A DNA stretch of 64,000 bases from Escherichia coli (GTDB lineage Bacteria; Pseudomonadota; Gammaproteobacteria; Enterobacterales; Enterobacteriaceae). The stretch is taken from assembly GCF_003991155.1 (NCBI RefSeq), contig NZ_CP031293.1; one strand, given 5' to 3'. The notes below the pieces were generated by a model. That model had not been told where the DNA came from, did not search any database, and worked only from the letters and a program-made list of their open reading frames with translations. Of the stretch, positions 2,521 to 38,492 are shown in pieces; positions within the stretch are counted from its first letter, which is position 1, and each line of letters starts with the position of its first letter. Both the position numbers and the translations under genes were made by a program.

Positions 2521-2572
2521 AATTATCTCCCTGTTTTGGCAATAAGAAAGAAAAGGGCTTACGCCCTCTTCA

Positions 2573-5376: not shown

Positions 5377-5379
5377 TAT

Positions 5380-6036: not shown

Positions 6037-6337
6037 CTTTTCTTTACTCTTTTTGTCCTGTGGATGTGAAACCTACACCTTTAATCCAGTTTGCGCCGCT
6101 TATTCCGGCGTATTATTTTACAACAATACATATATTTCGTATTAATTGATAAGAGGGGCATTTTACATTGGCTTATTTTCTTAAAGACAATGCCCACCTA
6201 TACACTGCGTAGCAGTGTGTGGGGTCTACCGACGGTTGCCTGCCGCAGGCTAAAAGCAAAACCAAGGTCAACGTCAACCCCGAAGTTTTTCTGACGAAAA
6301 ACTAACAGCAGCATTTATATTTGAGGTTATATTTTTA

Positions 6338-7819
6338 ATGGCGATTTTTCATCTGGATTTTAAAATTGTGAAACGAAGCGAAGGCATGACTTCTGTTGCG
6401 AAAGCTGCCTACCATGCCCGTACACGTATTACGGATGATCGCATTGGAGAAACATTTGATTTCAGCCACAGAACAGATCTTCATGGTCATATTATATTGG
6501 CACCTGTTTCCGCACCCTCTCATATTGTTGAAAGCTCCTCAACACTCTGGAATGAAGTTGAAAGAGTGGAACGCCAGAACAATGGTCAAACAGCCCGTTA
6601 TTTTGATGTCGCTATCCCCGTAGAACTCAGTAATGATGACAAGAAAAAATTGGTTGCTGAATACTGCCAGAAGAACTTTGTTGATAAGGGAATGATTGCC
6701 GATATCGCATTTCATGATTTAGACGGTAAAAATCCCCATGCTCACGTTATGTTAACCCTGAAAACTGTTGGTCCCGAAGGCTTCGGTAAAAAAGACAGAA
6801 GCTGGAATGATAAGAAGATAATGATCCAATGGCGTGAGTCATGGGCCACGATGTCAAACAGCTACCTTGAAGCTATTGGAAGTGAAGAACGTATCGATCA
6901 CCGTTCTCTCAGGACGCAATGTGCTGATGCCCTTACCCAAGCAGAAGAAGCATTCAGCGCTGAAGAGAAAGCATTCTGGCTTGCCAAGGCAACAGAAACA
7001 AACCGCCCGGCAATGCAGCGTGTTCATCGTGCTAAATGGAATAACACCGAGTCTCAGGAACAGCGAGCTGCTGAACAAGCTCAACGCGATCATCAAATTG
7101 AGGAAGCAAAGAAGGTCTACACTACATTCAGTGAGCTACCACTGGAAATCGTGGTTGATGTTCGCTCTTACTCTGTTTACCAGCTTCCTGAACCGGAAGA
7201 GATCGTTCTCCCTGACTTCCCAGCTACAACTAAACAGCAACCTGTTTCAGCGACACCAGCCATAAGCAGAAGACCAGCAGCAAAATCTTACCGTGATCCC
7301 AGTAAGGTCAGTAAAGTAAATGTTTCAGGGAAGAAATCCCCTGTTCTGGTTGCGCCTGAACCAACTGCATCCACTAAATTGAAAACCCCATCTCTTCAAA
7401 AAACCAGAGCGATGAACCGCGCTCCTGTGAGGAGTAGGAAACAGACCAAGCCCCGCCAGAATGGTTTGTTTAAACGTTTCACGCTACTGATAGTAGGATA
7501 TATAAGAGAGAAATTTATCTGGGCCAAAAGGAAAGCAGATACCACTGATGCTGACCATGACAAGCGTATCGCAGAGAACTATATCTATGATGAAGTGCTG
7601 GGTGTCAATGTTCCACGTTCGGAGTTTGAAAAACGTACCAAATTTAACAATGGTGACTATAAATTAACACCTGATGAAATCAAGCGTTTCCCAAGCCGTC
7701 CTAATCAGGAACAGCCGGAAGTTAATAGAAGCATAGATCTCACACCTTCAATGCCACCAGAACACATGAGGCAAGGAAGCGCGCCAAAACTGAGTCCACC
7801 GAGCCATAAGAGACATTAA
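6338..7819 (+). CDS. mobA: MobA/MobL-family (MOBQ-type) conjugative relaxase
   Basis: N-terminus MAIFHLDFKIVKRSEG...AAYHARTRI parallels RSF1010 MobA (MAIYHL...), with the histidine triad region HAHVMLT and IDHRSLRTQ; C-terminal half is low-complexity. Confidence 0.8.
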   Translation: MAIFHLDFKIVKRSEGMTSVAKAAYHARTRITDDRIGETFDFSHRTDLHGHIILAPVSAPSHIVESSSTLWNEVERVERQNNGQTARYFDVAIPVELSNDDKKKLVAEYCQKNFVDKGMIADIAFHDLDGKNPHAHVMLTLKTVGPEGFGKKDRSWNDKKIMIQWRESWATMSNSYLEAIGSEERIDHRSLRTQCADALTQAEEAFSAEEKAFWLAKATETNRPAMQRVHRAKWNNTESQEQRAAEQAQRDHQIEEAKKVYTTFSELPLEIVVDVRSYSVYQLPEPEEIVLPDFPATTKQQPVSATPAISRRPAAKSYRDPSKVSKVNVSGKKSPVLVAPEPTASTKLKTPSLQKTRAMNRAPVRSRKQTKPRQNGLFKRFTLLIVGYIREKFIWAKRKADTTDADHDKRIAENYIYDEVLGVNVPRSEFEKRTKFNNGDYKLTPDEIKRFPSRPNQEQPEVNRSIDLTPSMPPEHMRQGSAPKLSPPSHKRH

Positions 7820-11001: not shown

Positions 11002-11613
11002 CTATTTTTGTTTATATAAATCGTAGGAACTTAATTTTTTAGATTTCTCATAGGCATTTTCAATGTATAAAGATACATCTGCTAAAAATCGGTCTTCTTC
11101 TATCAATGAAATATAAGAACCAGTCAATTGATCATATGATTTGCACTCAGGGCAACAATATTTATCTTCTGAAGTTAAATTAAACCTATTATTATTAATA
11201 ATGTCATATAGTTCAGTTGTGTCAATAGTTCTTGATGAACATCCATCAGGCTTGATTGAAGAAGATACTAACCAGTCATAGCTATTATTAACCTTCATTA
11301 TCACACCAACAATGCCATTAGTTCGGGAAGTGGTTCCTCCTCTCTTGTATTCTTTCAATGCATATTCAATTTCCCAGTCAATCCATTTACTTTTAATCAT
11401 ATTCGGGGAAATAATAACGATTAAAACAGATGTCCCGAAAATCATATTTTTAAGATTGTTCTTTATATTATCTACTGTTGTATTACTTATATCAGGAGAC
11501 TCCGATGTTTCCCCTTTATAGTAAACAGCATCATCACCTAATGCCTTGACAATTTTGTCTCTTAAATCCTGTGCTTCACTATATTTATATGATATGAATG
11601 TTTCATGAGCCAT
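11002..11613 (-). CDS. thsB: Thoeris ThsB, TIR-domain protein
   Basis: N-terminal ETFISYKYSEAQ and WIDWEIEYAL are typical TIR-domain signatures; 16 bp downstream of thsA on the same strand. Confidence 0.8.
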   Translation of the reverse strand: MAHETFISYKYSEAQDLRDKIVKALGDDAVYYKGETSESPDISNTTVDNIKNNLKNMIFGTSVLIVIISPNMIKSKWIDWEIEYALKEYKRGGTTSRTNGIVGVIMKVNNSYDWLVSSSIKPDGCSSRTIDTTELYDIINNNRFNLTSEDKYCCPECKSYDQLTGSYISLIEEDRFLADVSLYIENAYEKSKKLSSYDLYKQK

Positions 11614-11629
11614 AACTTCACCTAATATA

Positions 11630-13066
11630 TTATTTATTCAGTTTGTTTATGATTTTTATTACAACTTCTATTGTTTTTTTTACCGAAAAATCTTTTTCAG
11701 TAAGCTCAGACAAATCATTATATATCCATTCATTACTTCCATAATATTTCTTAGGATCTTGTGATATTTGTTCAAATATATATTTAGACATATACCCGGT
11801 ATTGGGTAAAGGAATTGGTACAAGGCCATGTTGAACAGCAATCTCAAACTCTCTAAATACTCCCCTAGCATTTACTATATCATTATTTTCCTCTTGTTTA
11901 TTTCCAAAAATAAACAATGCAATACCACCAAGAGGAATCATTCTCTGTCTATACTCCTCCCAAAGTTCTTGAATATCTTTCCCCTTACTGACAGTTTGTG
12001 GAAATGGTCTAACAATGAGCTGTTCTTCTGATAATTTATCTGGCCTACTATAAATTGCATCCAACGCACCATTTATCACAGAACTTCCGACGCCCCATCC
12101 AAATCCATTCACTATCCTATAATTATTCTTTATAATCTCATATGCTAATGTGTGAATAAAATCTAATGCTTTAGGTCTTTCAAGATCCCCATATTTTTCT
12201 GCACTACCAGAAATAAATATCGTTTTCTTTTTAAATGATTGCTCTATCTTAGCTAGAATTTTAGGGATGTCAGAATATTCATCTATTAATAATACTTGTA
12301 TACCAAATCTCTTGAGATCATCGATTCGCAGTTTTTGTTTTCTGATCTTATAATTTACTGTTTCTTCATCATCTAGGGAATTATTAGCCTCATTCTTCAT
12401 AAAGCAATAGTGTGTCCTCTTGTCCCCAGAATGAGTATACAAACGACTCAAAATGTAATCCAGATTTGGGTCGGTAAAACTAAACCCTATGAATAGAAAG
12501 GTTTTTGATATTAAATCTCCGCTAAGTGCGGTGATAAATGAAGCGTGTGTTCTGTAGTATTTTTCATACTGCTCTTTATATAAAATAGCCTTGGATGGGG
12601 ACGAAATATCACCATGCATTTTATATACTATCGCGTCTCGCTTAGGTCGTGTTGTATTTAAATCATCTATGTTTCTTTTTACATCTGCAATTTTGTAAAC
12701 TTTCCGCAGACTATCTTCAATTAAAGTGTCATAGTTTGTTGTCCAAAATGTCTTAATCGGTAAACGAGCAATTATATTATGAACCTCTGATGGCTCGGCT
12801 TGCTCAGAAAACTCTTCGATTATCTTCCTTGTGAGTTTTGTAGCCCCTTTCTTTTCATTAACATGAAATTGAGCAAGCGATATTAGATCGTCTTCTTTAT
12901 TAATGTCTAAACTAAGCTCTTCTGCTATATCGCTAAGTAATTCTTTCCAATCAACATAACCTTGACTTTTAGACATTCCTGCGCCAGAAAAAATAGCAGC
13001 ACAATCATTTTCAAGATCTTTAACAAAATCTTTTATGAAAACTTCAATTTCATTACTAAACGTCAT
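11630..13066 (-). CDS. thsA: Thoeris ThsA, SIR2 (NAD-binding) plus SLOG domain protein
   Basis: From ATG at 13066 (GGAG RBS 9 nt upstream) the protein MTFSNEIEVFIKDF...AAIFSGAGMS...TTNYD...MHGD (SIR2) then IFISGSA...GFGWGVGSSVINGALD (SLOG) closely parallels Bacillus cereus ThsA as I recall it. Confidence 0.85.
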   Translation of the reverse strand: MTFSNEIEVFIKDFVKDLENDCAAIFSGAGMSKSQGYVDWKELLSDIAEELSLDINKEDDLISLAQFHVNEKKGATKLTRKIIEEFSEQAEPSEVHNIIARLPIKTFWTTNYDTLIEDSLRKVYKIADVKRNIDDLNTTRPKRDAIVYKMHGDISSPSKAILYKEQYEKYYRTHASFITALSGDLISKTFLFIGFSFTDPNLDYILSRLYTHSGDKRTHYCFMKNEANNSLDDEETVNYKIRKQKLRIDDLKRFGIQVLLIDEYSDIPKILAKIEQSFKKKTIFISGSAEKYGDLERPKALDFIHTLAYEIIKNNYRIVNGFGWGVGSSVINGALDAIYSRPDKLSEEQLIVRPFPQTVSKGKDIQELWEEYRQRMIPLGGIALFIFGNKQEENNDIVNARGVFREFEIAVQHGLVPIPLPNTGYMSKYIFEQISQDPKKYYGSNEWIYNDLSELTEKDFSVKKTIEVVIKIINKLNK

Positions 13067-16022: not shown

Positions 16023-16568
16023 ATGTTAGATAATAAAATAAAAAAATCAAGAAGAGGTCTACCTCGCCATGTAAAAAACCCATTCCTTAATGATACAAAT
16101 ATACATACAAAAACAGGTATCAGACGTATCACAACAGGAAAAGATCGCTTAGCCGTAGTAAATGAAAATACAGGAGAACAGGTTGGGCATGGTGGTTTCT
16201 TTCAGTCAATGGAAGTAGACAAGACACAGTTCGTGAAGCTTTATGTGGATGGCGTATCAGCTATTGAGGGTTTATCCTCATCCGGTAAGAAAGTATTTAA
16301 GATACTGTATCTTGCTATTAGAGACAATAAAGATACAGATACGATATTAATGTCATTCGATATTGTTGATCAAGAGATTGTAAAAATATCAAGAACGACA
16401 TATTTCAAAGGGATGAAAGAACTTGCTGACAAGAAATTTATTGCTGAGACCATGATACAGAACTATTATTTTATTAATCCAGACTATATGTTTAATGGTG
16501 ATCGTTTAACTTTCATGAAAACTTATTACTTGAAGGGTAAAAAGAAAACAGCGAATAATAAAAATTAA
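16023..16568 (+). CDS. Hypothetical basic protein, possibly DNA-binding
   Basis: 181-aa ORF with AAAGGGGAAAG RBS-like region upstream; weak resemblance to small replication/DNA-binding proteins, not verified. Confidence 0.35.
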   Translation: MLDNKIKKSRRGLPRHVKNPFLNDTNIHTKTGIRRITTGKDRLAVVNENTGEQVGHGGFFQSMEVDKTQFVKLYVDGVSAIEGLSSSGKKVFKILYLAIRDNKDTDTILMSFDIVDQEIVKISRTTYFKGMKELADKKFIAETMIQNYYFINPDYMFNGDRLTFMKTYYLKGKKKTANNKN

Positions 16569-17359: not shown

Positions 17360-17764
17360 ATGAGTGAAGCTCTCAAGGCACTGAACAATATTCGTACACT
17401 TCGCGCACATGCTCGTGAAACAGATCTGACAACTCTGGAAGAGATGCTGGAAAAGCTCTCTGCTGTCGTTGAAGATCGCCGTGAGGAAGAAAATTCAGCC
17501 CGTAAAGAACAAGAAGAACGTCAGGCTAAACTGGAAGCCTTCCGCCAGAAATTGTTAGAAGACGGTATCGATCCTACAGAACTACTCGCTGCTGTTAGTT
17601 CATCCCAGCCTAAAGCCAAATCAACTCGTGCTCCTCGTCCTGCTAAATACAAATATACAGATGAAAACGGTAATGAGCAGACTTGGACGGGTCAGGGCCG
17701 TACTCCTAAAGCAATCGCCGCTGCTATCGAAGCTGGTAAGACACTGGAAGACTTTGCAATCTAA
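17360..17764 (+). CDS. H-NS family nucleoid-associated protein (island-encoded paralogue)
   Basis: [20 protein letters not shown]...[25 protein letters not shown] aligns closely with E. coli H-NS, including the DNA-binding TWTGQGRTP motif. Confidence 0.85.
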
Positions 17765-19311: not shown

Positions 19312-19530
19312 TTATGCAGCGTTCTGGCGTGAGTTTCGAATAGTCGTTTCAATCCATTCATCAATCTCACTTTCAACAAAAGCAACACACCTCGGACCTA
19401 TTTTTACTCTGTCAGGAAAGTTTCCTTCCTTAATACGCTCATATAAAGTCGTGCGACTGAATCCCACTCGATTTAAAACATCAGGAACGCGGATAAATCG
19501 TTTTACGCTGGTTTCAATATTTTCTTTCAT
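19312..19530 (-). CDS. alpA: AlpA-family phage regulatory protein (MerR-like HTH)
   Basis: IRVPDVLNRVGFSRTTLYERIKEGNFPDRVKIGPRCVAFVESEIDEWI matches the AlpA pattern; AGAGGA RBS 6 nt before ATG 19530. Confidence 0.7.
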   Translation of the reverse strand: MKENIETSVKRFIRVPDVLNRVGFSRTTLYERIKEGNFPDRVKIGPRCVAFVESEIDEWIETTIRNSRQNAA

Positions 19531-19745
19531 TGTCTGTCCTCTATTATTGTAAGTAATCTCTATGAGATTTCGCTTTTCTCTATGTTGTTTCGACGTGAAC
19601 AATGATAGCGATTTTGCTTATGGTAATTTAGGGACGTTCAAAGAAGTTTTTTTTGAAAAATTCGAAGGGGCACGGATGGAAAGATAACGGTTAACACTGG
19701 ATGAGATCACGTTCGCTCGGAGCGAACGTAACCCTTTTACTTGGC

Positions 19746-20639
19746 TTATTTTTTCTTATTCCTGTCGTCTTCTACATGCTTTTCAACAGGGGAGTCTTTC
19801 AAGTGGTTGTTTTCCATCATGTAATCTTCAAGCGATTTCAGATAGCTCGCATCCGTCAGAAAAGCCATTGCTAACGGGTAGTCCGTTGCCTTTAGCATTC
19901 CTTCATCACGATCGTTGTCGCTGTCCTCGTGAAGCAGCGAAGAAATCAGTGAAAGCGGGATTTTAATGCCGTTATCTTCTCCCCAGAAGATCAGGTCCAT
20001 CATCGGGATAAGACGATATTCAATGATTTTTCTGAATGTGCTTTTGCCGAAACGATACTCTCTTGGCGCTGGAGACTTCATCTTAAGCTGTCTCTTCCAT
20101 TGAGGGATCAGCACTTTCAGATGTTCAATGATTTCTTCAGTTGATGCCTCTTCCAGATGAATATCGACAGTAATGCGTGAAAGATTATTAAGGGATGTTT
20201 CTTTTAGATACTCGGACAGAAATTCGGATTCGCTTAACGCGGAAAGCTCAGGCGTGGCTTCGGTTAATGCCAGCGTTTTCGCATAAAATTGCGCGTGGCT
20301 TCGTGTCGTAGGATTTACCGCGTAGGTTCTGGCAAGCTCATGTCCAAGGGTAGCGGTATCACCACTGAAAAAGATTTCACCGCTGAGGATCTTGTTGCGG
20401 TAATCATCCAGCATTAATCGGTTAAAGGTAGGTATGGTGTTCCGGCTCAACAACATTCTGTAAGCCAAGATACGCCGCTCAACCTCAACATAAAACTGCT
20501 GTAAGGTGAGTTTCTCTATCGCCTCATATCGTTCCACATCAAACCATGCTTCCAGTGCTTTCCTGATTTCACTTCTTTTCATCCATCCTCCAACAATCCA
20601 TTTCCTTTGATATATCTTCACAGGATCCGTTTGGAACAA
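19746..20639 (-). CDS. Hypothetical protein occupying the position next to tRNA-Ser where an integrase would be expected
   Basis: 297-aa ORF, no tyrosine- or serine-recombinase motifs recognisable; same orientation as alpA. Confidence 0.4.
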   Translation of the reverse strand: MFQTDPVKIYQRKWIVGGWMKRSEIRKALEAWFDVERYEAIEKLTLQQFYVEVERRILAYRMLLSRNTIPTFNRLMLDDYRNKILSGEIFFSGDTATLGHELARTYAVNPTTRSHAQFYAKTLALTEATPELSALSESEFLSEYLKETSLNNLSRITVDIHLEEASTEEIIEHLKVLIPQWKRQLKMKSPAPREYRFGKSTFRKIIEYRLIPMMDLIFWGEDNGIKIPLSLISSLLHEDSDNDRDEGMLKATDYPLAMAFLTDASYLKSLEDYMMENNHLKDSPVEKHVEDDRNKKK

Positions 20640-20860
20640 TTGAAGTTCAACTGTTTTGTCATCAGAGACGGGGGAATGGCTAAGTTGTTGTTAAGAGTGT
20701 GAACTCGAGAGCATAAAAGTGGATGCCCGACGCGCGGCAAAATGGTAAAAAACAGCATCAGTAGTAAGAAAAATTGAGCGAGAGAAAGGAATTTTAATGC
20801 AGGGATTTATGCATGACAAAATCAAAAATACTTTGTAAGTGATTGATTTTGTTGAATGAT

Positions 20861-20950
20861 TGGCGGAGAGAGGGGGATTTGAACCCCCGGTAGAGTTGCC
20901 CCTACTCCGGTTTTCGAGACCGGTCCGTTCAGCCGCTCCGGCATCTCTCC
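20861..20950 (-). tRNA. serU: tRNA-Ser (anticodon CGA), serU
   Basis: Reverse complement reads GGAGAGATGCCGGAGCGGCTGAACGGACCGGTCTCGAAAACCGGAGTAGGGGCAACTCTACCGGGGGTTCAAATCCCCCTCTCTCCGCCA, matching the E. coli serU sequence as I recall it. Confidence 0.95.
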
Positions 20951-21941: not shown

Positions 21942-22017
21942 TCCTCTGTAGTTCAGTCGGTAGAACGGCGGACTGTTAATCCGTATGTCACTGGTTCGAG
22001 TCCAGTCAGAGGAGCCA
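21942..22017 (+). tRNA. asnT: tRNA-Asn (anticodon GTT), asnT locus
   Basis: TCCTCTGTAGTTCAGTCGGTAGAACGGCGGACTGTTAATCCGTATGTCACTGGTTCGAGTCCAGTCAGAGGAGCCA, matching E. coli tRNA-Asn. Confidence 0.95.
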
Positions 22018-22183
22018 AATTTTAGTCTTGAGACATCTCTATAAGTCTCAGGATAGTTAAAAAACAAGAACTTATCTTTACCCGGTTGTCTCGCAAGAGG
22101 CTGCTGGGTTTCTTGACATCCATAGTTTTTAGGGGCCTAATCAGGGGCCTCACGGTTCGGTGAGCAAACGGAGCCCCCACGCT

Positions 22184-23446
22184 ATGGCATTAACAGACAC
22201 CGCTATTCGCAAGACTAAACCCTCTGACAAACCCTTCAAAATGACGGACAGTTCTGGACTGTACCTGTTGATCAAACCTAACGGCTCAAAACTCTGGTAT
22301 ATGAAGTACCGCATCGACGGCAAAGAGAAGAAACTGGCCTTTGGCCCCTACCCGGAGATCTCCCTGTTGCAGGCTCGCCGCCTGCGCGAAACAGCACGCA
22401 ATAACATTCATGCAGGCGTCGATCCGGCTGCGGTGAAGCAAACCGAGAAACAGAAGAGGAAAAACGGGCAGACGTTCAGCCAGATCGCCATCAACTGGCA
22501 TAGCGAGCATAAACGCTGGTCTGAGCATTACGCGAAAACGGTTATGCGCAGGCTGGAAATGTACGTTTTCCCGGATATCGGGGATCGCCTTATCGAGGAG
22601 ATCGAAACGGAGGATTTGTTATTCACGTTGCGCAAGGTAGAGAGTAAAGGCTTTCTGGAAATCACCGCGCGGCTGAAAAACTACGTCACCGATATCATGC
22701 ACTACGCGATGAAAAAGAAACTGCTCAAAGCGAACCCGGCGCTGTATCTGGACGGTGAGTTTGCCGCGCCAGAAACCAGTCACTACCCGGCCCTGTCGCT
22801 GGATAAGTTGCCTGAGCTTTTATCCCGGACAGAGAATTACTGCGGCAGGCTGCTGACGAAATACGCCCTCAAACTTTCGCTGCTGTTTTTCGTGCGCTCC
22901 AGCGAGCTACGTTTTGCCCGCTGGAGTGAAATCGACTGGCAGCAAAAACTGTGGGTGATCCCGGAAGAACGCGAGCAGATCGAAAACGTGCGCTTCTCTT
23001 ACCGGGGGGCGAAAATGAAAATCCAGCACATTGTGCCGCTGTCGGATCAGGCGATTGCGATACTGAAGCAGATCGAGGCCCTCTCCGGGCATCTGGCCTT
23101 TATTTTTCCCGGCGAATACGACCAGAACAAGTGCATGAGCGACAACACCGTCAACAAGGCGCTGCGCGTGATGGGTTACGACACCAAAAAGGATATCTGC
23201 GGGCATGGCTTCCGGGCAATGGCCTGTAGTGCGCTGAGCGAATCGGGATTATGGAGCAAAGAAGCCATTGAAAAGCAGATGAGCCACCAGGAAAGAAACA
23301 GCGTCCGTGCTGCCTATATTCACAAGGCTGAATATCTGGAGGAACGGATCGAGATGATGCAGTGGTGGTCAGATTATCTTGATGCAAACAGTGACGGGTA
23401 TGTCTCGGCTTACCAGTATGCCCGCCGCCTAAAACAGGCGTCGTAA
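22184..23446 (+). CDS. int: P4-type tyrosine integrase
   Basis: MALTDTAIRKTKPSDKP...LYLLIKPNGSKLW N-terminus and C-terminal HGFRAMA...RAAYIH catalytic motifs; immediately downstream of tRNA-Asn. Confidence 0.9.
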   Translation: MALTDTAIRKTKPSDKPFKMTDSSGLYLLIKPNGSKLWYMKYRIDGKEKKLAFGPYPEISLLQARRLRETARNNIHAGVDPAAVKQTEKQKRKNGQTFSQIAINWHSEHKRWSEHYAKTVMRRLEMYVFPDIGDRLIEEIETEDLLFTLRKVESKGFLEITARLKNYVTDIMHYAMKKKLLKANPALYLDGEFAAPETSHYPALSLDKLPELLSRTENYCGRLLTKYALKLSLLFFVRSSELRFARWSEIDWQQKLWVIPEEREQIENVRFSYRGAKMKIQHIVPLSDQAIAILKQIEALSGHLAFIFPGEYDQNKCMSDNTVNKALRVMGYDTKKDICGHGFRAMACSALSESGLWSKEAIEKQMSHQERNSVRAAYIHKAEYLEERIEMMQWWSDYLDANSDGYVSAYQYARRLKQAS

Positions 23447-23540
23447 GTTAACAAAGCATCAGAGGGGGAAAAGGTATATTCCCCCTTTGTGCGTTTCAAA
23501 TGTCGATGCTGACTGTAGCTTTTAAACTAAATTACTGGAT

Positions 23541-23569
23541 AAAAAGTAGCTTTTAAGCTACTATCTTTT
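23541..23569. promoter_or_regulatory. Palindrome agtagctt-tt-aagctact, with a related copy about 30 bp upstream; candidate operator
   Basis: Perfect 8-bp-arm inverted repeat immediately before the toxin-gene start. Confidence 0.3.
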
Positions 23570-23738
23570 ATGAAAACGATAAAGACCTACATAACTGCCG
23601 ACGGGCGAGATCTGTATGCAGAGTTTTTTAAAGGGTTACGCAACCCCATCGCGAAGGCAACGATCGCTTCCCGGATCAACCGGATGGCTTCGGACAATTT
23701 TGGCGACCATAAGCCCTGCCGGGAAGGTGTCTGGGAAC
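23570..23738 (+). pseudogene. 5' fragment of an addiction-module killer protein (RelE/ParE superfamily), truncated by IS insertion
   Basis: MKTIKTYITADGRDLYAEFFKGL...NFGDHKPCREGVWEL runs directly into the IS terminal repeat at 23739; no continuation on the other side. Confidence 0.45.
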
Positions 23739-23746
23739 TGTAGTGG

Positions 23747-25709
<1,963 letters not shown>

Positions 25710-25988
25710 ATCTCGTTCTCCTTCATAACATTCCAGATTCCAGAGGTACTTCGTGCTGCTATAACGTACCCGACAACCGGAACACCGGGACAGACAATGG
25801 ATGCGGTATTCGGTTATAAAACGGTATATATTTAAATAGTGAACACCATGAGCGTAATATATTTATTTGATGAATGTATTGATGAAAGGAAAATTGCTTT
25901 TTAGCTATTATCGGCGGGTGTATAATTTAGTCCGTTTTTTTCAAATAAATAATCGCAAATAGCATCTGATGCCACTGAGGACGCAGGT

Positions 25989-26780
25989 ATGAATTTCAGA
26001 CCAGCAGTATATTTATGTGCAGCAACATTTTTACTGGCTGGCTGTGCGCCACGCTCCCCCATTGATGCGAAGAAAACGGGCGCATCCGCCAAAGAGAGCA
26101 GCATCAGCAAAAACACAACGGCACAACTGACCGATAAAGATATTTTTGGCAATGAAACCACGCTGGCAGTTTCTGAGGAAGATATTCAGGCAGCACTGGA
26201 AGGCGAAGCGTTCCGCGTGCCGCTGAATTCACCCGTGATTCTGGTTCAATCCGGTAGCCGCGCACCGGAGGCCATGATGCAGCAGGAAATGAGTAAATAT
26301 TATACCGTTGCCACATTCTCCGGTATCCCGGACAGACAAAAACCTGTGACCTGTAACAAAGACAAAAACAAAGATAAAAGCGAGAACCAGGATGTTGCTG
26401 TTGTTGAGAATATGAACTGGATGCAGGCACTGCGTTTTGTGGCTGCAAAAGGACATCAGAAATCGATTATTGTTTACCAGGATACGTTGCAGACAGGAAA
26501 ATATGACTCTGCGCTGAAATCAACAGTGTGGTCAGATTATAAAAATCAAAAACTAACTGACACAATGTCATTACGTTTTTTGGTTCGCTTCACTCTGGTG
26601 GATGTGGCAACTGGCGAGTGGGCTACCTGGTCACCTGTAAATTATGAGTCCAGAGTTATCTTCCCTCAGACTGAAAAAAAGGGTGCAATCACTACCGATG
26701 TGACAGAGCAACAAATCACCCAGCTTAAGCAGAAAACATACGCAGCAATGACCAGGGATCTGGTGAACCGCTATCAGTAA
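25989..26780 (+). CDS. Hypothetical lipoprotein
   Basis: Signal peptide with lipobox [10 protein letters not shown]; GAGGA RBS. Confidence 0.5.
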
Positions 26781-26988
26781 GCAACATCCCCCTTACCTGC
26801 CGCTAATAAATAGTGGCGGCAGGCACTGGCACGAAAAACTCCCTGATGCTGACGATTATTAAACATCTTTCTGGTATTTTCTGTTGCAAACCATCCCATT
26901 CATAGCATATCAGTATCCATCATTTTAAATTTACAGTGATTGTATGCCTCAAAGCTAATCGCTTCCGATGATGGTGCCCGCAATAAAT

Positions 26989-27288
26989 TTAATCGGAATC
27001 GTCTTCTGTATCCTCCTCATATGAATCCCTGACGGTCCCCAGTTTTGTATTGCCATTGGCAGGCGTCCCATCTCCCATCAGAACGTCGATGTCATAGCCA
27101 GGATATTGTTTCTTTATATTGCGTTTGAACTCTGAGACCGTCGAATCATTTTTGGACATTTTCACCCGCTGATATTGTGGCATATCTTTTTTATCACCCC
27201 GGACGTCCTTACCATCGGGTGTTTTGAAGCGAACATCAAATCCCTGTACATCCCAGATTTTCTTTTCAACATTTTTTACTAATGGCAT
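26989..27288 (-). CDS. Hypothetical small protein with acidic C-terminal tail, downstream of hcp
   Basis: 99-aa ORF, no signal peptide; last gene of the T6SS operon direction. Confidence 0.35.
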   Translation of the reverse strand: MPLVKNVEKKIWDVQGFDVRFKTPDGKDVRGDKKDMPQYQRVKMSKNDSTVSEFKRNIKKQYPGYDIDVLMGDGTPANGNTKLGTVRDSYEEDTEDDSD

Positions 27289-27340
27289 TTTTATTCTCTC
27301 TTCAGAAAATTACACTAAATCAAAAAAAGTATCGCTATTC

Positions 27341-27820
27341 TTAATAGAGTCTCTCTTCCCATAAGCTATATGCACTGGTTCCTGCAACACAGTGCTCCTG
27401 AGTAATACTTTCATAGGTGAATGATATGGCCTCTTCTGGTTGTCCCTGGCTATTGTTGACAGTGTGCGGCACAATATGCTTTATGCTGGCAATGCGGGCG
27501 TTAATCAGCTTCACTTTGAAATACAGCTCGTTAATACCAAAACGGTTGGTGCGGTAATACTCAAAATCACAGGTCAGACACTCATTTTCGCTGATAGCCT
27601 TACTCAACAAAGGGGAAGATTTATCCACGGGTTTCTGAATAATGAGCGCTTGATGATTCACGTTTTGTGCACGGGTTAATCCGTGGCTGAGTCCCAGCAC
27701 CATGATCTGATCCATATGCGCAATCTGCGCTTTGTTCCCAATAGATGCCAGTGATGAACAGCCTGCGGAGATCAGCCCCTGGAGATCGCCGTTCAGTGTC
27801 AGGTAAACAGGATTTGCCAT
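27341..27820 (-). CDS. hcp: Hcp-family T6SS tube protein (second copy)
   Basis: MANPVYLTLNGDLQG... with KPVDKSSPLL and ELYFKVKL pattern typical of Hcp; AAGGAG RBS. Confidence 0.7.
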   Translation of the reverse strand: MANPVYLTLNGDLQGLISAGCSSLASIGNKAQIAHMDQIMVLGLSHGLTRAQNVNHQALIIQKPVDKSSPLLSKAISENECLTCDFEYYRTNRFGINELYFKVKLINARIASIKHIVPHTVNNSQGQPEEAISFTYESITQEHCVAGTSAYSLWEERLY

Positions 27821-27841
27821 ATTAAGCTCCTTGGTCCGGGG

Positions 27842-29197
27842 TTATTTCCCGACCCCTTTATCAATAATTGCCGTTTCCGGTAGAGAGTGATTTTTCAGCA
27901 ACAACCAGCGACTTAACACGCCGTCCAGCCGCTCGTTAATCTGTTTTTCCAGTACGTCGGTATTCTGCCCCTGCGCACGGGCGTCCTGGTACTGCGTCAG
28001 CAGCGACTCAACGGGTGTTTCCTGCCCCAGCCCCCGCTCCGCCTGCCAGATAACATTTTTGATGTAGGAAAGGGTTACCCCCTCTTTCTCACGTTTCATC
28101 ACGAGGTCTGCAAAGGCATGTAAGTCCTGGCGGGCCTGTAACCAGCCGCGTAACTGTGGACTACTCTGCGCACGAGTTTTCAGCGTCTCATTCCACTGTG
28201 CGGTGGCCTGCTGCTGTTGCAGACTCTCCGGCCAGCGGCTGTCGGCGGTACGCGCCATCTGTAAGCCCGTATTCAGCGGCTGAACAGGTGAAGCATCAAG
28301 GAGTTGCTGTAGCCTGCGCTCATAGTTTTCCAGCTCAGGCGACACAAGCCAGACTGTCGCAGCGCCCTGCGCGGTATCGCTGACCTGGGTGAGTTGTTGC
28401 TGCATGGGAGAGACCAGCCACCACCAGAGAGCGGCGGCAACAGCCCCGGAGCAGAGAACACCCGCGATAAAACCTTTCACCGCACTGCCCTGCTTTGCCA
28501 CACTGGTCGGTGGCGTACTGTCAGCCAGGCTGCGCACCTCCACCTTCATCTCCGGCAGTTCAGGCAGCGGCGGCATCACCGTTTCGGTTGCTGGCGTAAT
28601 ACCGTTTTCCGGGGCATAAATCAGCGTTCTGACCGTGGTCTGTGCGGTGTGTTCAACGCTGCTTTTCGGCTGCGGCTCAAGTCGTTTACGCGTGTTCTGA
28701 ACAAAATAAAGCAGGTTTTCCACGCGCGGCTGGCGCTTCAGTTCCACCTGCTGGAGCTTGTCACAGATAAGCTGTAGTGCCCGTTCCGTGCGATATAACA
28801 GAGGCAGGTCAGCCTCCACAAAGGATATCTGCTGGCGCAGGATATTCCCGGTGCGGGTGTTGAACCAGTCCAGCATCTCGGTCCGCGCCGGGCCGCCCTG
28901 CGGCCAGAAGTTATCCCACTCGTGAGTGACCATCGCCGCCAGCAATTCCGCCCCTTCGCAGAATCCCGCCAGCCCCTGTGTCCGGGTCCGGGCCAGCGTG
29001 TAGTAGGTGGCGGTATGCAAATCCACCCCGTTGGCCTTAAATATCGCCAGCGCCAGCGACTCCACCAGTTTCCAGTTCAGCTCCGGCTGCGACGGGTGGC
29101 TGGCCTTGTTGATTTCCTCGCGGATGGCGCTGAACTCTGGCAGGCCACGCGGGTCACTGCCGGTAACGATAGTTTGTGTCAGTACGTTATTGCTCAT
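27842..29197 (-). CDS. vasL: T6SS-associated protein VasL-like (ImpA N-terminal domain, TM segment)
   Basis: From ATG 29197: MSNNVLTQTIVTGSDPRGLPEFSAIREEINKASHPSQPELNW is the ImpA_N signature; internal hydrophobic segment; last core-cluster position as in the Vibrio cholerae vas cluster. Confidence 0.6.
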   Translation of the reverse strand: MSNNVLTQTIVTGSDPRGLPEFSAIREEINKASHPSQPELNWKLVESLALAIFKANGVDLHTATYYTLARTRTQGLAGFCEGAELLAAMVTHEWDNFWPQGGPARTEMLDWFNTRTGNILRQQISFVEADLPLLYRTERALQLICDKLQQVELKRQPRVENLLYFVQNTRKRLEPQPKSSVEHTAQTTVRTLIYAPENGITPATETVMPPLPELPEMKVEVRSLADSTPPTSVAKQGSAVKGFIAGVLCSGAVAAALWWWLVSPMQQQLTQVSDTAQGAATVWLVSPELENYERRLQQLLDASPVQPLNTGLQMARTADSRWPESLQQQQATAQWNETLKTRAQSSPQLRGWLQARQDLHAFADLVMKREKEGVTLSYIKNVIWQAERGLGQETPVESLLTQYQDARAQGQNTDVLEKQINERLDGVLSRWLLLKNHSLPETAIIDKGVGK

Positions 29198-29207
29198 CCC
29201 TGTCTCC

Positions 29208-32200
29208 TCAGTACAGCGTGTCCGACAGCCTGAACTGGCTGAAAAGCCCGCCACTGAATGGATTGTCCTCGGTGTCAGCGTGTATCCTGTAGACCATCGC
29301 GCCACCGTCCACGTTAAACCGCACGCTGAATGTCCCTGCCTCAACGCTGGTTAACTGCCCTGCCCCGAACAGGCGGAACTGCGCCCACGGCCCGGTGAAA
29401 CGGATGCTGCGCGGCGCTCCGCCGCTGACACCTATCAGCGTCAGTTTGCTTTCATTGCCTTCCCGCATATTGTTCGGCCACACCAGGTGGGCGGTATAGT
29501 TGCGGCCCTGGCTGTAATCGACTAACTGACCGTCGAGGTTCAGTACACTGCGCCGTTTGTTGCCGGAGAGCGATACCGTTTCCACCGCAAACTGCGTTCC
29601 CAGACCGTTTTGTTTACTGAAGAAGATGTCGCGAATCTTCTGCGCAGTATCCAGTTGCCGGATGATGTCCTCACGGATAATCACCCCGTCATCGCCATCA
29701 CGGCTCAGGTCATTTTCAATAAACAGTTTCAGGTTCTGCTGCCAGAATGTGTCCAGTACGCCATCCGGTTTAAAGAAACGCTCAAACGCATCCAGTGAGG
29801 CATCCTGCGCCGAGCGCGGATTAAACGGATAGTTACCGGCAAGCTGTTCATTGAACGGTTTCACCACGTTGTCACGCCAGTCAATTTCCATATAGTGAAC
29901 GGCCTCCACCATCACCACATGCCAGGCCTGGTCGGCCAGCTTGCCCACCCAGCGGTTAAGTGGCGCGGGCAGGGTTTTCGCCATCTGGCGGGTGGCGAAT
30001 ATCGGGTCGCTACTGTTCTGGTCCAGACGTAGCTGGACGGCTTTCAGCGCCGATTTCCCCGGCACCGGCGCGTTCTGGATCGCCAGCAGATAGCGGTGCA
30101 GTTCCGTTAACTGCTGGTACACCGCCTGCATGGTACTTTCTTTGTCCTTCTGCACCGCGAGCGTACTGTTTTCCGGGGCGAATTCATGCCCGAGGCGCGT
30201 CAGCAGGCGGTAGTCCGGCTCCGCCAGCGCGTCCTCCCGTTCTTTATCAGAGAGTTTTTCAGAGAGTACCGCAGGCTGCGTGTTATCACGCAGGGCAGTC
30301 AGCGCCCGCTGAAGTGGCTGGTCACCACTGATAATCTGCTCCAGCGCACCGGTCAGTTGCGCAATGGATTCATAATCCCGGACGTTCAGGTTATCCATCC
30401 CGGCCCGCCAGGTGGCGGTGTAGTCGCTGAGATACTGTTCAGTCAGCTGGCGCTGGATCTCTGTCTGGTCAGCGTCGCTGTATTTCACGCTGCGGGTGAG
30501 GTTGAGTACCCAGGAATCCATCGCCGTCAGTTCAACCAGTTCATCGCGCTGCTTCACAAAGTAGCTTTGCAGGCCGTAACGGGTGAGAAACTGCGGAACA
30601 ACCAGTTTGTTGTCATCGGCAGACGTGAACACCTGCTCAAAGGTCGGCCCCACCTGGTCACGCAGGTTAAGGTCAGCAGGCAGTACGCCCAGTGCCCGCG
30701 TTTTCAGGCTCTGGTAAACCCGCTGGTAGACAGGCAGTTTGCTCAGTTCTTTCTGTGCTGACACAACGGGCTTGTCATACGGCATCCAGCGGCTGATGGC
30801 GTCACCGTCACCCGCCTGACGCTCTGCGTGCCAGTCCGTGTGCGCCAGCGCGTAGTCAAGATGAGACATCAGTTGCGCCTGGATATCGCGCTGGCCGTGG
30901 AACTTTTCGCTCCAGCGTTTTGCCATATACTGCTTTACGACCTCATTATTACGTCCGCTTTTATCCTCCAGCATTCGCATCACGCGCAGCACAGCGAGTT
31001 TTTCCTCGCTCTCCGGCGGCGCGGCGTTCATCTCTTTGACCAGCCCGTTAAACAGGGCAGGCAAATAACGCTGCTCCAGCAGTTGCAGGTAGGTCTGCTC
31101 CACATACGGCCCGACACGCCGCCCCTGGTATAACCCCATATCCGCCAGGCGGCTGCGGTCGCCCCAGTCGCCATAAGCAAGAGTGGCATCACGTACCGGG
31201 TTCAGCAGCGGCAGTTGCAGGTTGCCATAGTCATCCATCCCCTGCGGGGGCGTGATATCCATAAACGCTTTCGCCTGCTTCAGCACCAGGACGCCGGAGG
31301 CATAGTTGTCATTGTAATAATGGTGCCAGCCGGTGATTAACAGCAGCGCCGCCACGCCGCCCGTTGCGGAAAAGGCGGTCAGGCGGCGGCGACTGCTGGT
31401 CAGCCAGGTCCGGCTCTCCGTTGCCAGGTTAGGCTCTGCCAGTAATGCCTGCGGGAACAGGTTGCGGGTGAAATACGGCGTGGTATCCACCAGCGGCCAG
31501 GCCGTCAGCGGACTGCTGCCCAGCCGGTACTGGCGGGCGGCGGACTGGGTAAAGATGTCATCCATCTGGCCGCGTTGCAGTGACGAGGTGAGATAGACGC
31601 CGCGCAGCATGACGTCCATGTTTTCGCCATCCAGCAATCCATCCAGCAGCGCCACCAGGGATTCCCGGCTTCCCTGCATCTGGCGGGCAAAGCTGAACAG
31701 GGAGCCACGCATATGGCTCTGCGCCAGCATCAGATCCGGCAGCGCCTGGTTCATTCGGTCACACCACGACTGCCAGAAGGCATTAAGTTCGCTTCGCCAG
31801 TCCTCGTTTTCATGGGCACGACGGGTGAACGTGACGCCCAGAATGGTGTCACGATCTTTTTTATCCAGTGACTGAAACAGCGTGGCAAAACCATGCAGCA
31901 GATCCAGCCGGGTCAGCACCACATAGACCGGCAACTGGCAGTGAAGCTGCTGGCGTACATCCTGGAGGCGGCTGCGCAGCGTCTGTAGCAGATACTCACG
32001 GCGGCGCTTGTCGGCGGTCAGCAGGTCAGGTAAATCGAGGGTCAGAATGAGCCCGTTCAGCGGCTGACGGGCGCGCTTCTCTACCAGCCAGCCCAGGGCA
32101 TGTTCCCATAACCGGCGGTGCAAAACATTTGCATCCGGCTGTTCACAGAGCGAGCCATCAATATCGAATATCACCGCCTGTTGCCCGACATGCGGGATGA

Positions 32201-32729
32201 GATACAGGCGCGGCTCCGCCCCACGCACCGCTTCGGGGATATAAATTATGTCAGACGGAAAACCCTCGCGCAGCAGTGTCGTTTTGCCACTGCCCGCCGG
32301 ACCGATAACCATATACCAGGGCAACTGCCACAGGTAGCGGCGGTTGTCGAGATGGCGTTGCAGGCGCAGTAACCAGCGGTCGAGGTAACGCTGCTGGGCG
32401 TTCAGCTCCACGCTGAGCGGATCAACGGCCTCTTCGCGCTGCTGTTTTTGCTGTTTTTCAAGCTGTTGCAGGCGCTTCATTACCCGGACAGTAAGCCACA
32501 CCAGGGCAATAATCCCCCATGCTGCCGTTGCCAGCCAGCGGTTAGCCAGTGGTTTGAGCCACTGTTCTTCATACAGCGTCCACGTCGGGCCTTTCCACCA
32601 GATCCACACCAGCAGGAAAATCCACGCCAGTATCAGCAGCCAGAATGCAGAAACCTTAAACCGGGGCATCGCCGGGCGCAGGGCTGATTTGAGTCCGCTG
32701 AATAGTCGGGGTGTTGGTAATCTGAACAC
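29208..32729 (-). CDS. tssM: T6SS membrane complex protein TssM (IcmF)
   Basis: 1173 aa; N-terminal TM helices, Walker A GPAGSGKTT; GTG start with AGGAG RBS. Confidence 0.9.
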   Translation of the reverse strand: MFRLPTPRLFSGLKSALRPAMPRFKVSAFWLLILAWIFLLVWIWWKGPTWTLYEEQWLKPLANRWLATAAWGIIALVWLTVRVMKRLQQLEKQQKQQREEAVDPLSVELNAQQRYLDRWLLRLQRHLDNRRYLWQLPWYMVIGPAGSGKTTLLREGFPSDIIYIPEAVRGAEPRLYLIPHVGQQAVIFDIDGSLCEQPDANVLHRRLWEHALGWLVEKRARQPLNGLILTLDLPDLLTADKRRREYLLQTLRSRLQDVRQQLHCQLPVYVVLTRLDLLHGFATLFQSLDKKDRDTILGVTFTRRAHENEDWRSELNAFWQSWCDRMNQALPDLMLAQSHMRGSLFSFARQMQGSRESLVALLDGLLDGENMDVMLRGVYLTSSLQRGQMDDIFTQSAARQYRLGSSPLTAWPLVDTTPYFTRNLFPQALLAEPNLATESRTWLTSSRRRLTAFSATGGVAALLLITGWHHYYNDNYASGVLVLKQAKAFMDITPPQGMDDYGNLQLPLLNPVRDATLAYGDWGDRSRLADMGLYQGRRVGPYVEQTYLQLLEQRYLPALFNGLVKEMNAAPPESEEKLAVLRVMRMLEDKSGRNNEVVKQYMAKRWSEKFHGQRDIQAQLMSHLDYALAHTDWHAERQAGDGDAISRWMPYDKPVVSAQKELSKLPVYQRVYQSLKTRALGVLPADLNLRDQVGPTFEQVFTSADDNKLVVPQFLTRYGLQSYFVKQRDELVELTAMDSWVLNLTRSVKYSDADQTEIQRQLTEQYLSDYTATWRAGMDNLNVRDYESIAQLTGALEQIISGDQPLQRALTALRDNTQPAVLSEKLSDKEREDALAEPDYRLLTRLGHEFAPENSTLAVQKDKESTMQAVYQQLTELHRYLLAIQNAPVPGKSALKAVQLRLDQNSSDPIFATRQMAKTLPAPLNRWVGKLADQAWHVVMVEAVHYMEIDWRDNVVKPFNEQLAGNYPFNPRSAQDASLDAFERFFKPDGVLDTFWQQNLKLFIENDLSRDGDDGVIIREDIIRQLDTAQKIRDIFFSKQNGLGTQFAVETVSLSGNKRRSVLNLDGQLVDYSQGRNYTAHLVWPNNMREGNESKLTLIGVSGGAPRSIRFTGPWAQFRLFGAGQLTSVEAGTFSVRFNVDGGAMVYRIHADTEDNPFSGGLFSQFRLSDTLY

Positions 32730-32747
32730 AAAAACTCCTGTTCTCTT

Positions 32748-34175
32748 TTATTGTTCTGCCGTGAATTTTTGTTCAAGCTGTTCAAGTAACGATGGCTCCC
32801 AGTCGGCCACCATCATTTGCAACCCCATCCTGAACAACATCCGGTACTGCTGCTGCGCAAGCTGTACCAGCCCCGCCTCTTCCGTCAACTGGGCGGCAAG
32901 GTACTGGCGGTGAAACTGATCGCGGGGATCGCCTTCGGGTAGCATGTCCAGATACCGCAGCGCCGCCTCCAGCCCCTGCTCAGCAAAACAGGCCCTGGCC
33001 GCCTGCGATTCCTCACCGGCCTGCGCAACCGGTGCCACTTTGCAGTCGGGCGAAGCGGACAGCCATTGTTTCGTCTGCTCACTGATAAACGGTGTGCGGT
33101 CATTAAACAGCAGCCCGGTAAGCTGGGGCAGGCGCTCAAGGAAGCGGGTGACCTCATCGCGGATGGCGTCTGCCACCTGTTTGTAACCCAGGCGCAGTGC
33201 CGTCTGTGCAGAAAGGCAGTGACCGTCCAGCCAGTAAGGAGCCAGCAGTACGCTTTTCTCCACCTGCTGCCACAGCGCCATATCCGCGCTGGCAAGCCGG
33301 GACTGGTAATCCGCCACCATATCGGCAGAAACCGCAGCCAGCGGGGTGCGTCCATCGCTTTCCACCTGGGGTGTACTGGTGATGTTCTGCCACAGCGCAT
33401 GGCGGCGCAGACGGTAGCCCTGCGGTGAGTCCGGCTGGCGTTCACATAAAATGGCCGCCACTTTTAACAGCGTGTCACGCCAGGCTTTGTCGTCGTGACT
33501 GTCAACCGTAACCTGGGGGGCCGGGACGGCAGGCGCCGTACTGGCGTTTTGCGAAGCAGCGGATACGGGAGCAGCAACGGTTTGCGCCAGTGTGCCGGTA
33601 TTTGCCGGAGAGGCCGGTGACACGGGCGCAGTACCATTAAACGCGCGCTGGTACAGGGCAAAAAGATCATCCGTCGCCTGTGCCAGTTCCGGGACGTTAT
33701 GCGACTGCCAGCACTGCGCCAGCTTTGCCAGTTCCCCCAGCAGCGCATCGCGCTGTGCCGTGGCTGCACTTTCCGCAAAAGACGTGACGCCCGCCTCAAA
33801 ACGTTTTATCACCTGACTGGCAAAGCGTTTTTTATGCGCCATATTCTGCGGCGCGGCCACCGCCCAGTAATGCTCCACATACAGCGCCAGCAGGCGCAAG
33901 GCCAGGAGCGGATCACCGGCATGTTGCAGGGTTCTCAGCAGATGCGCCAGCAGGCGAAAATCCTTACTCTCCGAAGCCAGAAGGACCAGCCCCCGGTGCT
34001 GGAGTTCAGGGATATCCAGCTGGCTGTGCGCCAGCGATCCCAGCTTGACAATCCCACCGTCGATATACTCCCAGTCCGGGTTATCGTCCTTCAGCGCTGA
34101 TGCCAGTTTCTCTTCCGGCAGGTTTTCCAGCAGGTGCGATACCCAGACATTCGGATCGCGTAAGTCCATTGCCAT
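32748..34175 (-). CDS. tssA: TssA-family protein (VasJ-like)
   Basis: Position between vasI-like gene and tssM; Ala/Pro-rich linker; GGGAGA RBS before ATG 34175. Confidence 0.6.
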   Translation of the reverse strand: MAMDLRDPNVWVSHLLENLPEEKLASALKDDNPDWEYIDGGIVKLGSLAHSQLDIPELQHRGLVLLASESKDFRLLAHLLRTLQHAGDPLLALRLLALYVEHYWAVAAPQNMAHKKRFASQVIKRFEAGVTSFAESAATAQRDALLGELAKLAQCWQSHNVPELAQATDDLFALYQRAFNGTAPVSPASPANTGTLAQTVAAPVSAASQNASTAPAVPAPQVTVDSHDDKAWRDTLLKVAAILCERQPDSPQGYRLRRHALWQNITSTPQVESDGRTPLAAVSADMVADYQSRLASADMALWQQVEKSVLLAPYWLDGHCLSAQTALRLGYKQVADAIRDEVTRFLERLPQLTGLLFNDRTPFISEQTKQWLSASPDCKVAPVAQAGEESQAARACFAEQGLEAALRYLDMLPEGDPRDQFHRQYLAAQLTEEAGLVQLAQQQYRMLFRMGLQMMVADWEPSLLEQLEQKFTAEQ

Positions 34176-34179
34176 ATTT

Positions 34180-37658: not shown

Positions 37659-37669
37659 ATATTGTGTCC

Positions 37670-38488: not shown

Positions 38489-38492
38489 GGCC

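Follow-up and report, generated by a model that had tools for sequence, protein, structure and literature searches.

The window analysed here, a stretch of 64,000 nucleotides of Escherichia coli DNA (contig NZ_CP031293.1), carries serU, a tRNA-Ser(cga) gene on the minus strand (20861–20950), and a tRNA-Asn gene on the plus strand (21942–22017), both located with ARAGORN. The first open reading frame on the same strand after the serU 3′ end (19746–20639, minus strand) translates into 297 amino acids from a TTG codon. A preliminary description of this DNA had noted that this frame is co-oriented with the tRNA gene, is followed by alpA, and bears no recombinase signature at a place where an integrase is expected, and ARAGORN, Pfam, NCBIfam, PHROG, and fold searches bore this out. 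The frame itself stands, while the length given for its product does not: because both the Pfam match and all homologues begin at residue 20 of the 297-residue version, the true start is probably the ATG at 20582, and the protein would then comprise 278 rather than 297 residues. A GGAGG motif lies 4 nt upstream of this ATG, and RefSeq calls a "DUF6387 family protein" of 278 residues. The features of the locus, with the basis of each assignment, are as follows:

1–323, plus strand: 3′ end of an integrase gene (RefSeq annotation of strain 2016C-3878, Pfam, PHROG integrase)
1057–3130, minus strand: type IV pilus genes, backbone, for a pilV-like tip adhesin and the major pilin (annotation; also in CFT073)
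3526–3831, minus strand: traD-like conjugal transfer gene (annotation)
6338–7819, plus strand: MobQ-family relaxase gene (annotation; a 60% identical homologue in related locus L019)
11002–11613, minus strand: ThsB (TIR), Thoeris defence cargo (PADLOC, E 1.4e-85)
11630–13066, minus strand: ThsA (SIR2), Thoeris defence cargo (PADLOC, E 8e-203)
16023–16568, plus strand: RepL-like replication or maintenance gene (annotation; 90–92% identical homologues in Asn-type islands L011 and L018)
17360–17764, plus strand: full-length H-NS paralogue, Hfp-like (annotation and serU-island Hfp literature, PMC6035254, PMC7074111)
18283–18525, minus strand: truncated H-NS N-terminal paralogue (annotation)
19312–19530, minus strand: alpA-type gene, 72 aa, presumed recombination directionality factor (RDF) or regulator (PHROG, RefSeq, CFT073 annotation)
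19746–20582, minus strand: DUF6387 gene, 278 aa (837 bp), from its probable start (Pfam PF19924, phrog_23422, dN/dS, AlphaFold2 model)
20583–20860: island-internal att arm, from the core repeat to the DUF6387 gene (homology with island-free genomes ends at 20861)
20861–20874: core direct repeat TGGCGGAGAGAGGG, 14 bp, at the serU 3′ end, with a distal copy 1076–1063 bp upstream of window position 1
20861–20950, minus strand: serU, tRNA-Ser(cga), the integration target, which stays intact through the island-borne repeat (ARAGORN and RefSeq annotation)

Extent and ends of the serU island

The gene map was taken from RefSeq for strain 2016C-3878, to which the region is 100% identical. From its far end to the tRNA gene, the order is integrase, a VOC-family gene, pilV, type IV pilin, traD, MobQ relaxase, a lipoprotein gene, DUF4755, the TIR and SIR2 genes, RepL, DUF4756, H-NS, DUF6404, short H-NS, two hypothetical genes, alpA, DUF6387, and serU. 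The alpA gene encodes 72 residues in RefSeq, within a longer open reading frame of 96 residues from a TTG at 19602; it is labelled "helix-turn-helix transcriptional regulator" in RefSeq and "AlpA family" in CFT073, and its product matches the PHROG category "excisionase and transcriptional regulator" (E 1.7e-12). The integrase gene, of which only the 3′ end falls within the window, is 1221 bp long in full (406 aa), with its start 898 bp before the first position of the window. Its product has the Pfam domains Arm-DNA-bind_3, Phage_int_M, and Phage_integrase and, when aligned to the integrase of the asnT island in the same window, keeps the Arg (ARSGE), HGFR (HxxR), His, and AAY (Tyr) motifs, the two integrases being 28% identical. 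Judged by its sequence, it is thus an intact P4-type tyrosine integrase, placed at the tRNA-distal end of the island and reading inward; its identity to the P4-type integrases adjoining Asn-type islands L010 and L018 is 26–32%.

The direct repeat of the serU 3′ end that the preliminary description had proposed to look for at the distal boundary was found. It is a direct copy of 14 bp, located outside the window at a distance of 165 bp upstream of the start codon of the integrase gene, and no copies of TGGCGGAGAGAGGG other than those at the two island ends were detected across the window and the distal flank. E. coli K-12 W3110 provides the empty site: there, the sequence downstream of serU runs on into the flank left of the distal repeat, and the two junction alignments share exactly the 14 bp of the core. 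Similarly, homology to thousands of island-free genomes starts exactly at window position 20861. CFT073 has the identical repeat at the identical distance from a matching integrase, beside zinT. The resulting island measures ~21.9 kb, and its end was found in about 340–380 of the 5426 complete genomes of E. coli, CFT073 being one of the carriers; many complete E. coli chromosomes match the 1.9 kb around DUF6387, alpA, and serU at 100% identity.

An intact integrase, an RDF-type gene, both att junctions, and a core present in two copies indicate a single element rather than a fixed remnant or a tandem pair. The region belongs to the known serU island of E. coli, of which it forms the tRNA-proximal end; this island is a ROD21-like (EARL), integrative, and MobQ-mobilisable element. 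This catalogued island is probably excisable rather than decayed, the evidence for the mobility of the serU island itself being its presence/absence polymorphism among E. coli genomes. Hence, the integrase fragment at 1–323 belongs to the same element, as the preliminary description had considered, and not to a second one in tandem, the 14-mer being present at two ends only. Because the polarity of the island is reversed relative to the tRNA gene, the earlier reading had been misled. It is extremely improbable that a tRNA-proximal integrase was lost or replaced, that the island became fixed, and that the fragment derives from another, tandem element: no recombinase adjoins the tRNA gene and P4-type islands usually have int there, the asnT island 1 kb away within the window being one example, but here an intact 406-residue integrase lies just inside the distal repeat, the core is confined to the two island ends, the K-12 empty site is exact, and CFT073 has the same layout, with int opposite alpA and DUF6387 being the norm for the family (PMC10763509).

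DUF6387 and alpA read inward as well, from the tRNA-proximal end. Excision would give a circle in which alpA, DUF6387, attP, and int follow one another, transcription of DUF6387 and of int leading away from attP. A pattern scan of the att arm between DUF6387 and the core repeat (20583–20860) gave weak evidence: a single sigma-70-like site, at 20819 to 20791 of the minus strand, which is fewer than in shuffled sequences, and no terminator-like site. No convincing exact 9-mers common to both att arms were found as candidate arm-type repeats.

Known islands with a similar layout

The island corresponds to the "serU island" of the uropathogenic E. coli (UPEC) literature (PMC5521745), since CFT073 carries tcpC on it. 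PAI-CFT073-serU, the TcpC/Hfp island, shares with the element described here the insertion site, the 14-bp repeats, and the position of the integrase beside zinT, along with pilV, the pilin gene, traD, mobQ, repL, DUF4756, H-NS, DUF6404, alpA, and DUF6387, the DUF6387 proteins of the two being 99% identical. The cargo differs: Thoeris ThsA/ThsB and a VOC-family gene in the window, and tcpC, a second TIR gene, and a macro-domain gene in CFT073.

A broader comparison links this layout to EARL (Enterobacteriaceae-associated ROD21-like) islands, which have an integrase at one end and alpA with a conserved gene of unassigned role at the other (PMC10763509, PMC6035254). "An 843 bp gene of unknown function" was reported to accompany the RDF gene (PMC6035254), EARL papers ascribing it to "most" islands, not all, and in ICEKp258.2 the last open reading frame, adjoining an AlpA-family gene, is annotated as DUF6387 (PMC10763509). 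ROD21 of Salmonella Enteritidis and ICEKp258.2 of Klebsiella pneumoniae ST258 have a P4-type integrase opposite an AlpA-type RDF and the conserved gene annotated as DUF6387 in ICEKp258.2, and share with the serU island MobQ, TraD, a type IV pilus, H-NS paralogues, TIR cargo, and direct repeats at a tRNA gene. Both have been shown experimentally to excise into a circular form (PMC3198454, PMC10763509). The type IV pilus genes are listed as EARL backbone and TraD as part of the EARL conjugation module (PMC10763509); at the level of annotation, the serU island has the corresponding pair of TraD and a MOBQ relaxase, and it also has the end with the P4-related integrase, the end with alpA and a gene of ~843 bp, and direct repeats with a precise empty site.

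The serU island departs from the typical EARL arrangement in several respects. EARL islands typically, though not universally, target an Asn tRNA gene and carry the integrase beside it, which is not what is seen here: the serU island occupies serU instead of an Asn tRNA gene, its integrase belongs to a different lineage, and its repeat spans 14 bp as opposed to 25 bp. In addition, it is the DUF6387 end that borders the intact tRNA gene, and the integrase that borders the partial repeat, whereas the EARL norm is an integrase beside the tRNA gene. EARL relatives with a different integrase are known to occupy Ser or Phe tRNA genes (PMC10763509). The polarity seen at serU, with the tRNA gene at the DUF6387/alpA end, recurs among the loci collected here, both at serU in an Escherichia species and at tRNA-Ser(tga) in Mangrovibacter and Citrobacter.

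The DUF6387 protein family

The DUF6387 protein yielded a single full-length match to Pfam PF19924 (E 2e-53, model positions 1–258 of 258), as did all of the aligned homologues to the same family (114 of 114), and was assigned to phrog_23422, which is labelled as of unknown function. Ratios of dN/dS between 0.04 and 0.12 against orthologues of 72–99% identity identify the reading frame as a real gene and are indicative of purifying selection. An exhaustive HMMER scan (E ≤ 1e-3) recovered homologues forming 233 clusters at 50% identity, nearly all of 250–345 residues. Compared to PF19924 and PHROG 23422, the window protein showed no difference, with the same full-length match, length class, and motifs. 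The gene family and the serU island are thus both already catalogued, and their presence here is explained by known biology. The preliminary description had named an island function as its alternative to a replaced integrase, and this alternative is the one upheld, in the form of a protein from an uncharacterised Pfam family that is not a recombinase.

Few positions are conserved in the 114-sequence alignment: W13, F14, Y19, R37, L159, K/R163, K185, P193, D196, L197, and W200. They fall within two basic segments (residues 1–66 and 146–220) of an otherwise acidic protein, with a pI of 5.6 against a family median of 5.5. Such an acidic pI is unusual for a DNA binder.

With the same alignment as input, AlphaFold2 returned a confident, all-helical model (pLDDT 91, pTM 0.86). 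A Foldseek search with this model gave nothing below E = 1 against the PDB, in which the protein has no sequence relative either; against AFDB50, all matches were uncharacterised or DUF6387 proteins, from Enterobacterales, Aeromonas, Photobacterium, Alteromonas, and Burkholderia. The predicted fold therefore appears to have no relative outside its own family. For tyrosine recombinases, there was no integrase match in Pfam, NCBIfam, or PHROG and no fold match, and for serine recombinases there was no Pfam match, and the all-helical model is without the alpha/beta resolvase core. The recombinase fold that the preliminary description had proposed to look for by structure prediction was not encountered, nor was homology to a standard prophage regulatory protein, whereas an intact integrase with attL and attR, the other finding on which the preliminary description had set its own refutation, is present. 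Taken together, these searches show that the reading frame beside serU does not encode a recombinase.

Neither fold nor sequence comparisons revealed any resemblance to topoisomerases, relaxases, or nucleases, or to known replication initiators or ParB/ParA. A known defence protein was likewise rejected as an identity for DUF6387, as no PADLOC family matched at E 0.01 or better. A phage or plasmid origin was discarded too: the phage and plasmid matches were mis-filed chromosomal records only, and the family is essentially absent from phage and true plasmid records.

These results bear on the idea that DUF6387 is a new DNA-processing enzyme acting at att, for instance with Tyr19 as a nucleophile assisted by Arg37 and Lys/Arg163, which would replace or supplement the integrase. 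Across the 114 diverse sequences, Y19 never varies and R37 and K/R163 hardly do, and the gene always lies beside att, int, or alpA. However, such an enzyme would resemble none of the recombinases, topoisomerases, relaxases, or nucleases searched for, the loci with enough sequence have a canonical integrase nearby or belong to a family with one at the other end (PMC10763509), and the conserved residues are mainly aromatic or aliphatic, as in a fold core. We therefore consider a catalytic role of this kind very improbable.

Neighbourhood and possible role of DUF6387

Gene neighbourhoods were compared across 25 loci from a one-genome-per-species collection (13-sequence alignment), supplemented with metagenomic and other loci. 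An alpA gene lies 150–300 bp downstream of DUF6387 on the same strand in 20 of the 25 species-level loci, and 2.6–2.9 kb downstream in two others (L021 and L024); among the metagenomic and other loci, the six with sufficient flanking sequence all have alpA 110–150 bp downstream. Including the window and CFT073, where alpA is likewise directly downstream on the same strand, DUF6387 directly precedes alpA in about 30 loci overall. No alpA was seen within the 0.8 kb available downstream of DUF6387 in L013 or within 2.1 kb in L025, and the DUF6387 copy of L009 is truncated. On the other side, DUF6387 is immediately preceded by a co-oriented P4-type integrase gene in L006, L021–L028, L033, L035, L039, and L040; in L032 and L036, the stop of the integrase gene and the start of DUF6387 share 4 nt. 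This synteny is kept at DUF6387 identities of 22–95%, in elements that use six tRNA targets (Ser cga, tga, and gga; Leu; Arg; Asn) and that have unrelated backbones, i.e., MobQ islands, DUF3987-primase elements, and DnaT-type elements.

Comparison between islands with an EARL backbone suggests which genes DUF6387 accompanies. Between Ser-type and other EARL-backbone islands, H-NS, DUF4756, and RepL are 57–92% identical, and where the integrase and att type change, identity falls to 36–45% for DUF6387 and 42–59% for AlpA. This drop with integrase and att type suggests that both proteins travel with the integrase and att, to which they would be contiguous around attP in the circle. At the same time, physical linkage around attP could by itself produce co-segregation with int and alpA, which speaks against reading a shared role into this pattern.

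In many DUF6387 loci, int, DUF6387, alpA, and replication genes follow one another in a single direction, which matches the order described for the "integration zone" of Gram-negative phage-inducible chromosomal islands (PICIs) and P4-like elements, in which int and then alpA read inward (PMC10111431). The described PICIs, GIsul2, and CP4-57 are without DUF6387. We examined two candidates for a counterpart and rejected both: YfjH, located between intA and alpA in the CP4-57 element of K-12, had an hhalign probability of 0.3% and is on the opposite strand, and GIsul2 has no gene in the interval, alpA being directly after int (PMC9376610). In GIsul2, Int alone is enough for integration, and the fact that a P4-type Int and AlpA work there without DUF6387 counts against a module role for this protein (PMC9376610).

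More distant elements also offer a point of comparison, although not a homologue. DUF6387 is co-directional with alpA and has no detectable sequence or fold similarity to P2 C, Stl, ImmR, or ImmA. In other elements, regulators occupy the position between int and the excision gene, namely C in P2, Stl in SaPIs, and ImmR/ImmA in ICEBs1. SaPI Stl is similar to DUF6387 in size and helical content, and regulators of the P2 C, Stl, and ImmR type are usually divergent from the excision gene.

Overall, we favour, at a probability of about 0.55, the reading that combines the island anatomy described above with DUF6387 as an accessory or regulatory component of the integration/excision module. In favour of this role are the synteny with alpA and int across identities, targets, and backbones, the joint drop in identity with integrase type, and the purifying selection on the gene. 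On the opposite side, homology lends no support to the function, L009 has a truncated copy, L013 and L025 are without alpA in the available flank, and "most" rather than all EARL islands are said to have the gene. DUF6387 would be a third component of the module that P4-type integrases form with AlpA-type factors; it would be produced along with AlpA and, in many elements, also along with Int from one int–DUF6387–alpA transcription unit. It would most likely work through binding rather than catalysis, with att-arm DNA, promoter DNA, or Int and AlpA themselves as candidate targets, and such binding would tune the expression of int and alpA or the assembly of the intasome at island excision. In ROD21, the AlpA homologue SEN1998 binds both attL and attR, more tightly the arm on the side of the RDF gene, and deletion or overexpression of the RDF gene changes excision only slightly (PMC8844411), which leaves room for another factor. 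A more specific version, in which DUF6387 is a new all-helical third protein that binds Int, AlpA, or the att arm and sets the timing or direction of recombination, common to EARL islands and P4/PICI-like satellites of Gamma- and Betaproteobacteria, is offered tentatively, at a little under even odds.

Two other roles were weighed against this accessory or regulatory one. DUF6387 may be hitch-hiking cargo, or a host-interaction gene involved in defence, anti-defence, exclusion, or stabilisation, that resides at the island edge and has no part in recombination. Island edges and the int–alpA zone do acquire cargo, and the inserts of 2.6–2.9 kb in L021 and L024 include a protein matching a PADLOC candidate model; the acidic character of DUF6387 also fits. 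Against this, its position is kept down to 22% identity, on unrelated backbones and at six tRNA targets, unlike that of variable cargo, DUF6387 itself has no PADLOC match and hardly occurs in phages or true plasmids, and in some lineages the overlapping stop and start codons suggest translational coupling to int. On balance, we regard a cargo role as unlikely. Alternatively, DUF6387 may serve the excised circle, through replication initiation, partition, or the coupling of excision to mobilisation, rather than recombination itself. The gene order implies co-expression with excision functions, the islands have RepL as well as MobQ/TraD, and the basic conserved segments could bind DNA. Yet the gene is combined with at least three unrelated back-ends (RepL with MobQ, a DUF3987 primase, and DnaT/Lin1244), with which a dedicated partner should co-vary, and it resembles no known initiator or partition protein, so that a function in the circle appears distinctly unlikely.

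The question of what DUF6387 does is a modest one, sharpened by the int–DUF6387–alpA synteny and by a predicted fold without a relative outside the family. EARL islands include medically relevant elements, among them ROD21, ICEKp258.2 of K. pneumoniae ST258, and the TcpC island of UPEC. Excision of ROD21 affects Salmonella virulence. Control of excision in EARL islands is only partly understood, given how slight the effects of RDF deletion or overexpression are (PMC8844411). As a conserved protein under purifying selection, with an unmatched predicted fold and encoded beside att, int, and alpA throughout the lineages compared, DUF6387 is an obvious candidate for the missing control element.

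Integrase position and the DUF6387–alpA junction

Integrase genes were noted next to that of DUF6387, the 278-aa protein encoded beside the serU 3′ end, at several related loci. In Affinibrenneria salicis (locus L006, 1388-3892), the integrase gene lies directly upstream of DUF6387 and alpA, all on the same strand, and is therefore inverted compared with its place in the circularised E. coli island. The integrase and DUF6387 are 81% and 80% identical to those of the serU island, respectively, and a tRNA-Ser(gga) is found 0.8 kb away in divergent orientation. At two other DUF6387 loci, L010 (4325-5482) and L018 (4121-5368), the gene for a P4-type integrase from a different lineage is divergent from DUF6387, and the ~0.5 kb separating the two genes contains no intact tRNA, an arrangement as expected for tandem islands integrated at a shared repeat.

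In Mangrovibacter plantisponsor (L009, 6001-6813), the DUF6387 frame seems to end after ~84 codons while similarity runs on beyond this point, which probably reflects a pseudogene or a sequencing frameshift. In two tRNA-Leu/Arg islands (L021, 6957-9600; L024, 6800-9350), 2.6–2.9 kb of extra genes separate DUF6387 from alpA, including one in L021 encoding a 298-aa protein that matches the PADLOC candidate model ‘cll’ (E 4e-16). Cargo can be taken up at the DUF6387–alpA junction.

Flank and neighboring asnT island

Outside the serU island, strain 2016C-3878 (L002, identical to the window region) differs from K-12 in that a different stretch of ~220 bp takes the place of ~1 kb between zinT and the serU flank, including the cytochrome b561 homologue yodB.

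1523-1744 bp upstream of window position 1 (outside the window, in L002): ~220-bp replacement segment, from comparison with K-12

A second island occupies the asnT tRNA, 1 kb from serU (21942-41100 and beyond).

22160-23446: P4-type integrase
23747-24960: IS3 element

This asnT island also includes a relE fragment and a type VI secretion cluster (hcp, vasL, tssM, tssA, vasI, tssH, tssK, tssJ, tagH) of high GC content (57–61%), whereas in the UPEC strain CFT073 asnT is occupied by the yersiniabactin HPI.

Mobility genes and cargo of the serU island

The serU island encodes two H-NS paralogues, the shorter of which resembles the truncated H-NST type known from EARL islands.

17360-17764 (+): full-length, Hfp-like H-NS paralogue, 134 aa
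18283-18525 (-): short H-NS paralogue, N-terminal part only, 80 aa

The island is stated to lack both mobilisation and transfer genes (PMC5521745). RefSeq annotates genes for a MobQ relaxase and a TraD-like protein, together with type IV pilus genes, both in the window (1057-7819) and in CFT073. The island may be mobilisable rather than immobile. Its cargo includes a defence pair, with matches at E 1.4e-85 for ThsB (TIR) and 8e-203 for ThsA (SIR2).

11002-13066 (-): type I Thoeris pair, ThsB and ThsA

In the CFT073 serU island, the equivalent slot instead holds tcpC, another TIR gene, and a macro-domain gene, and TIR-based cargo has therefore been exchanged on a common backbone.
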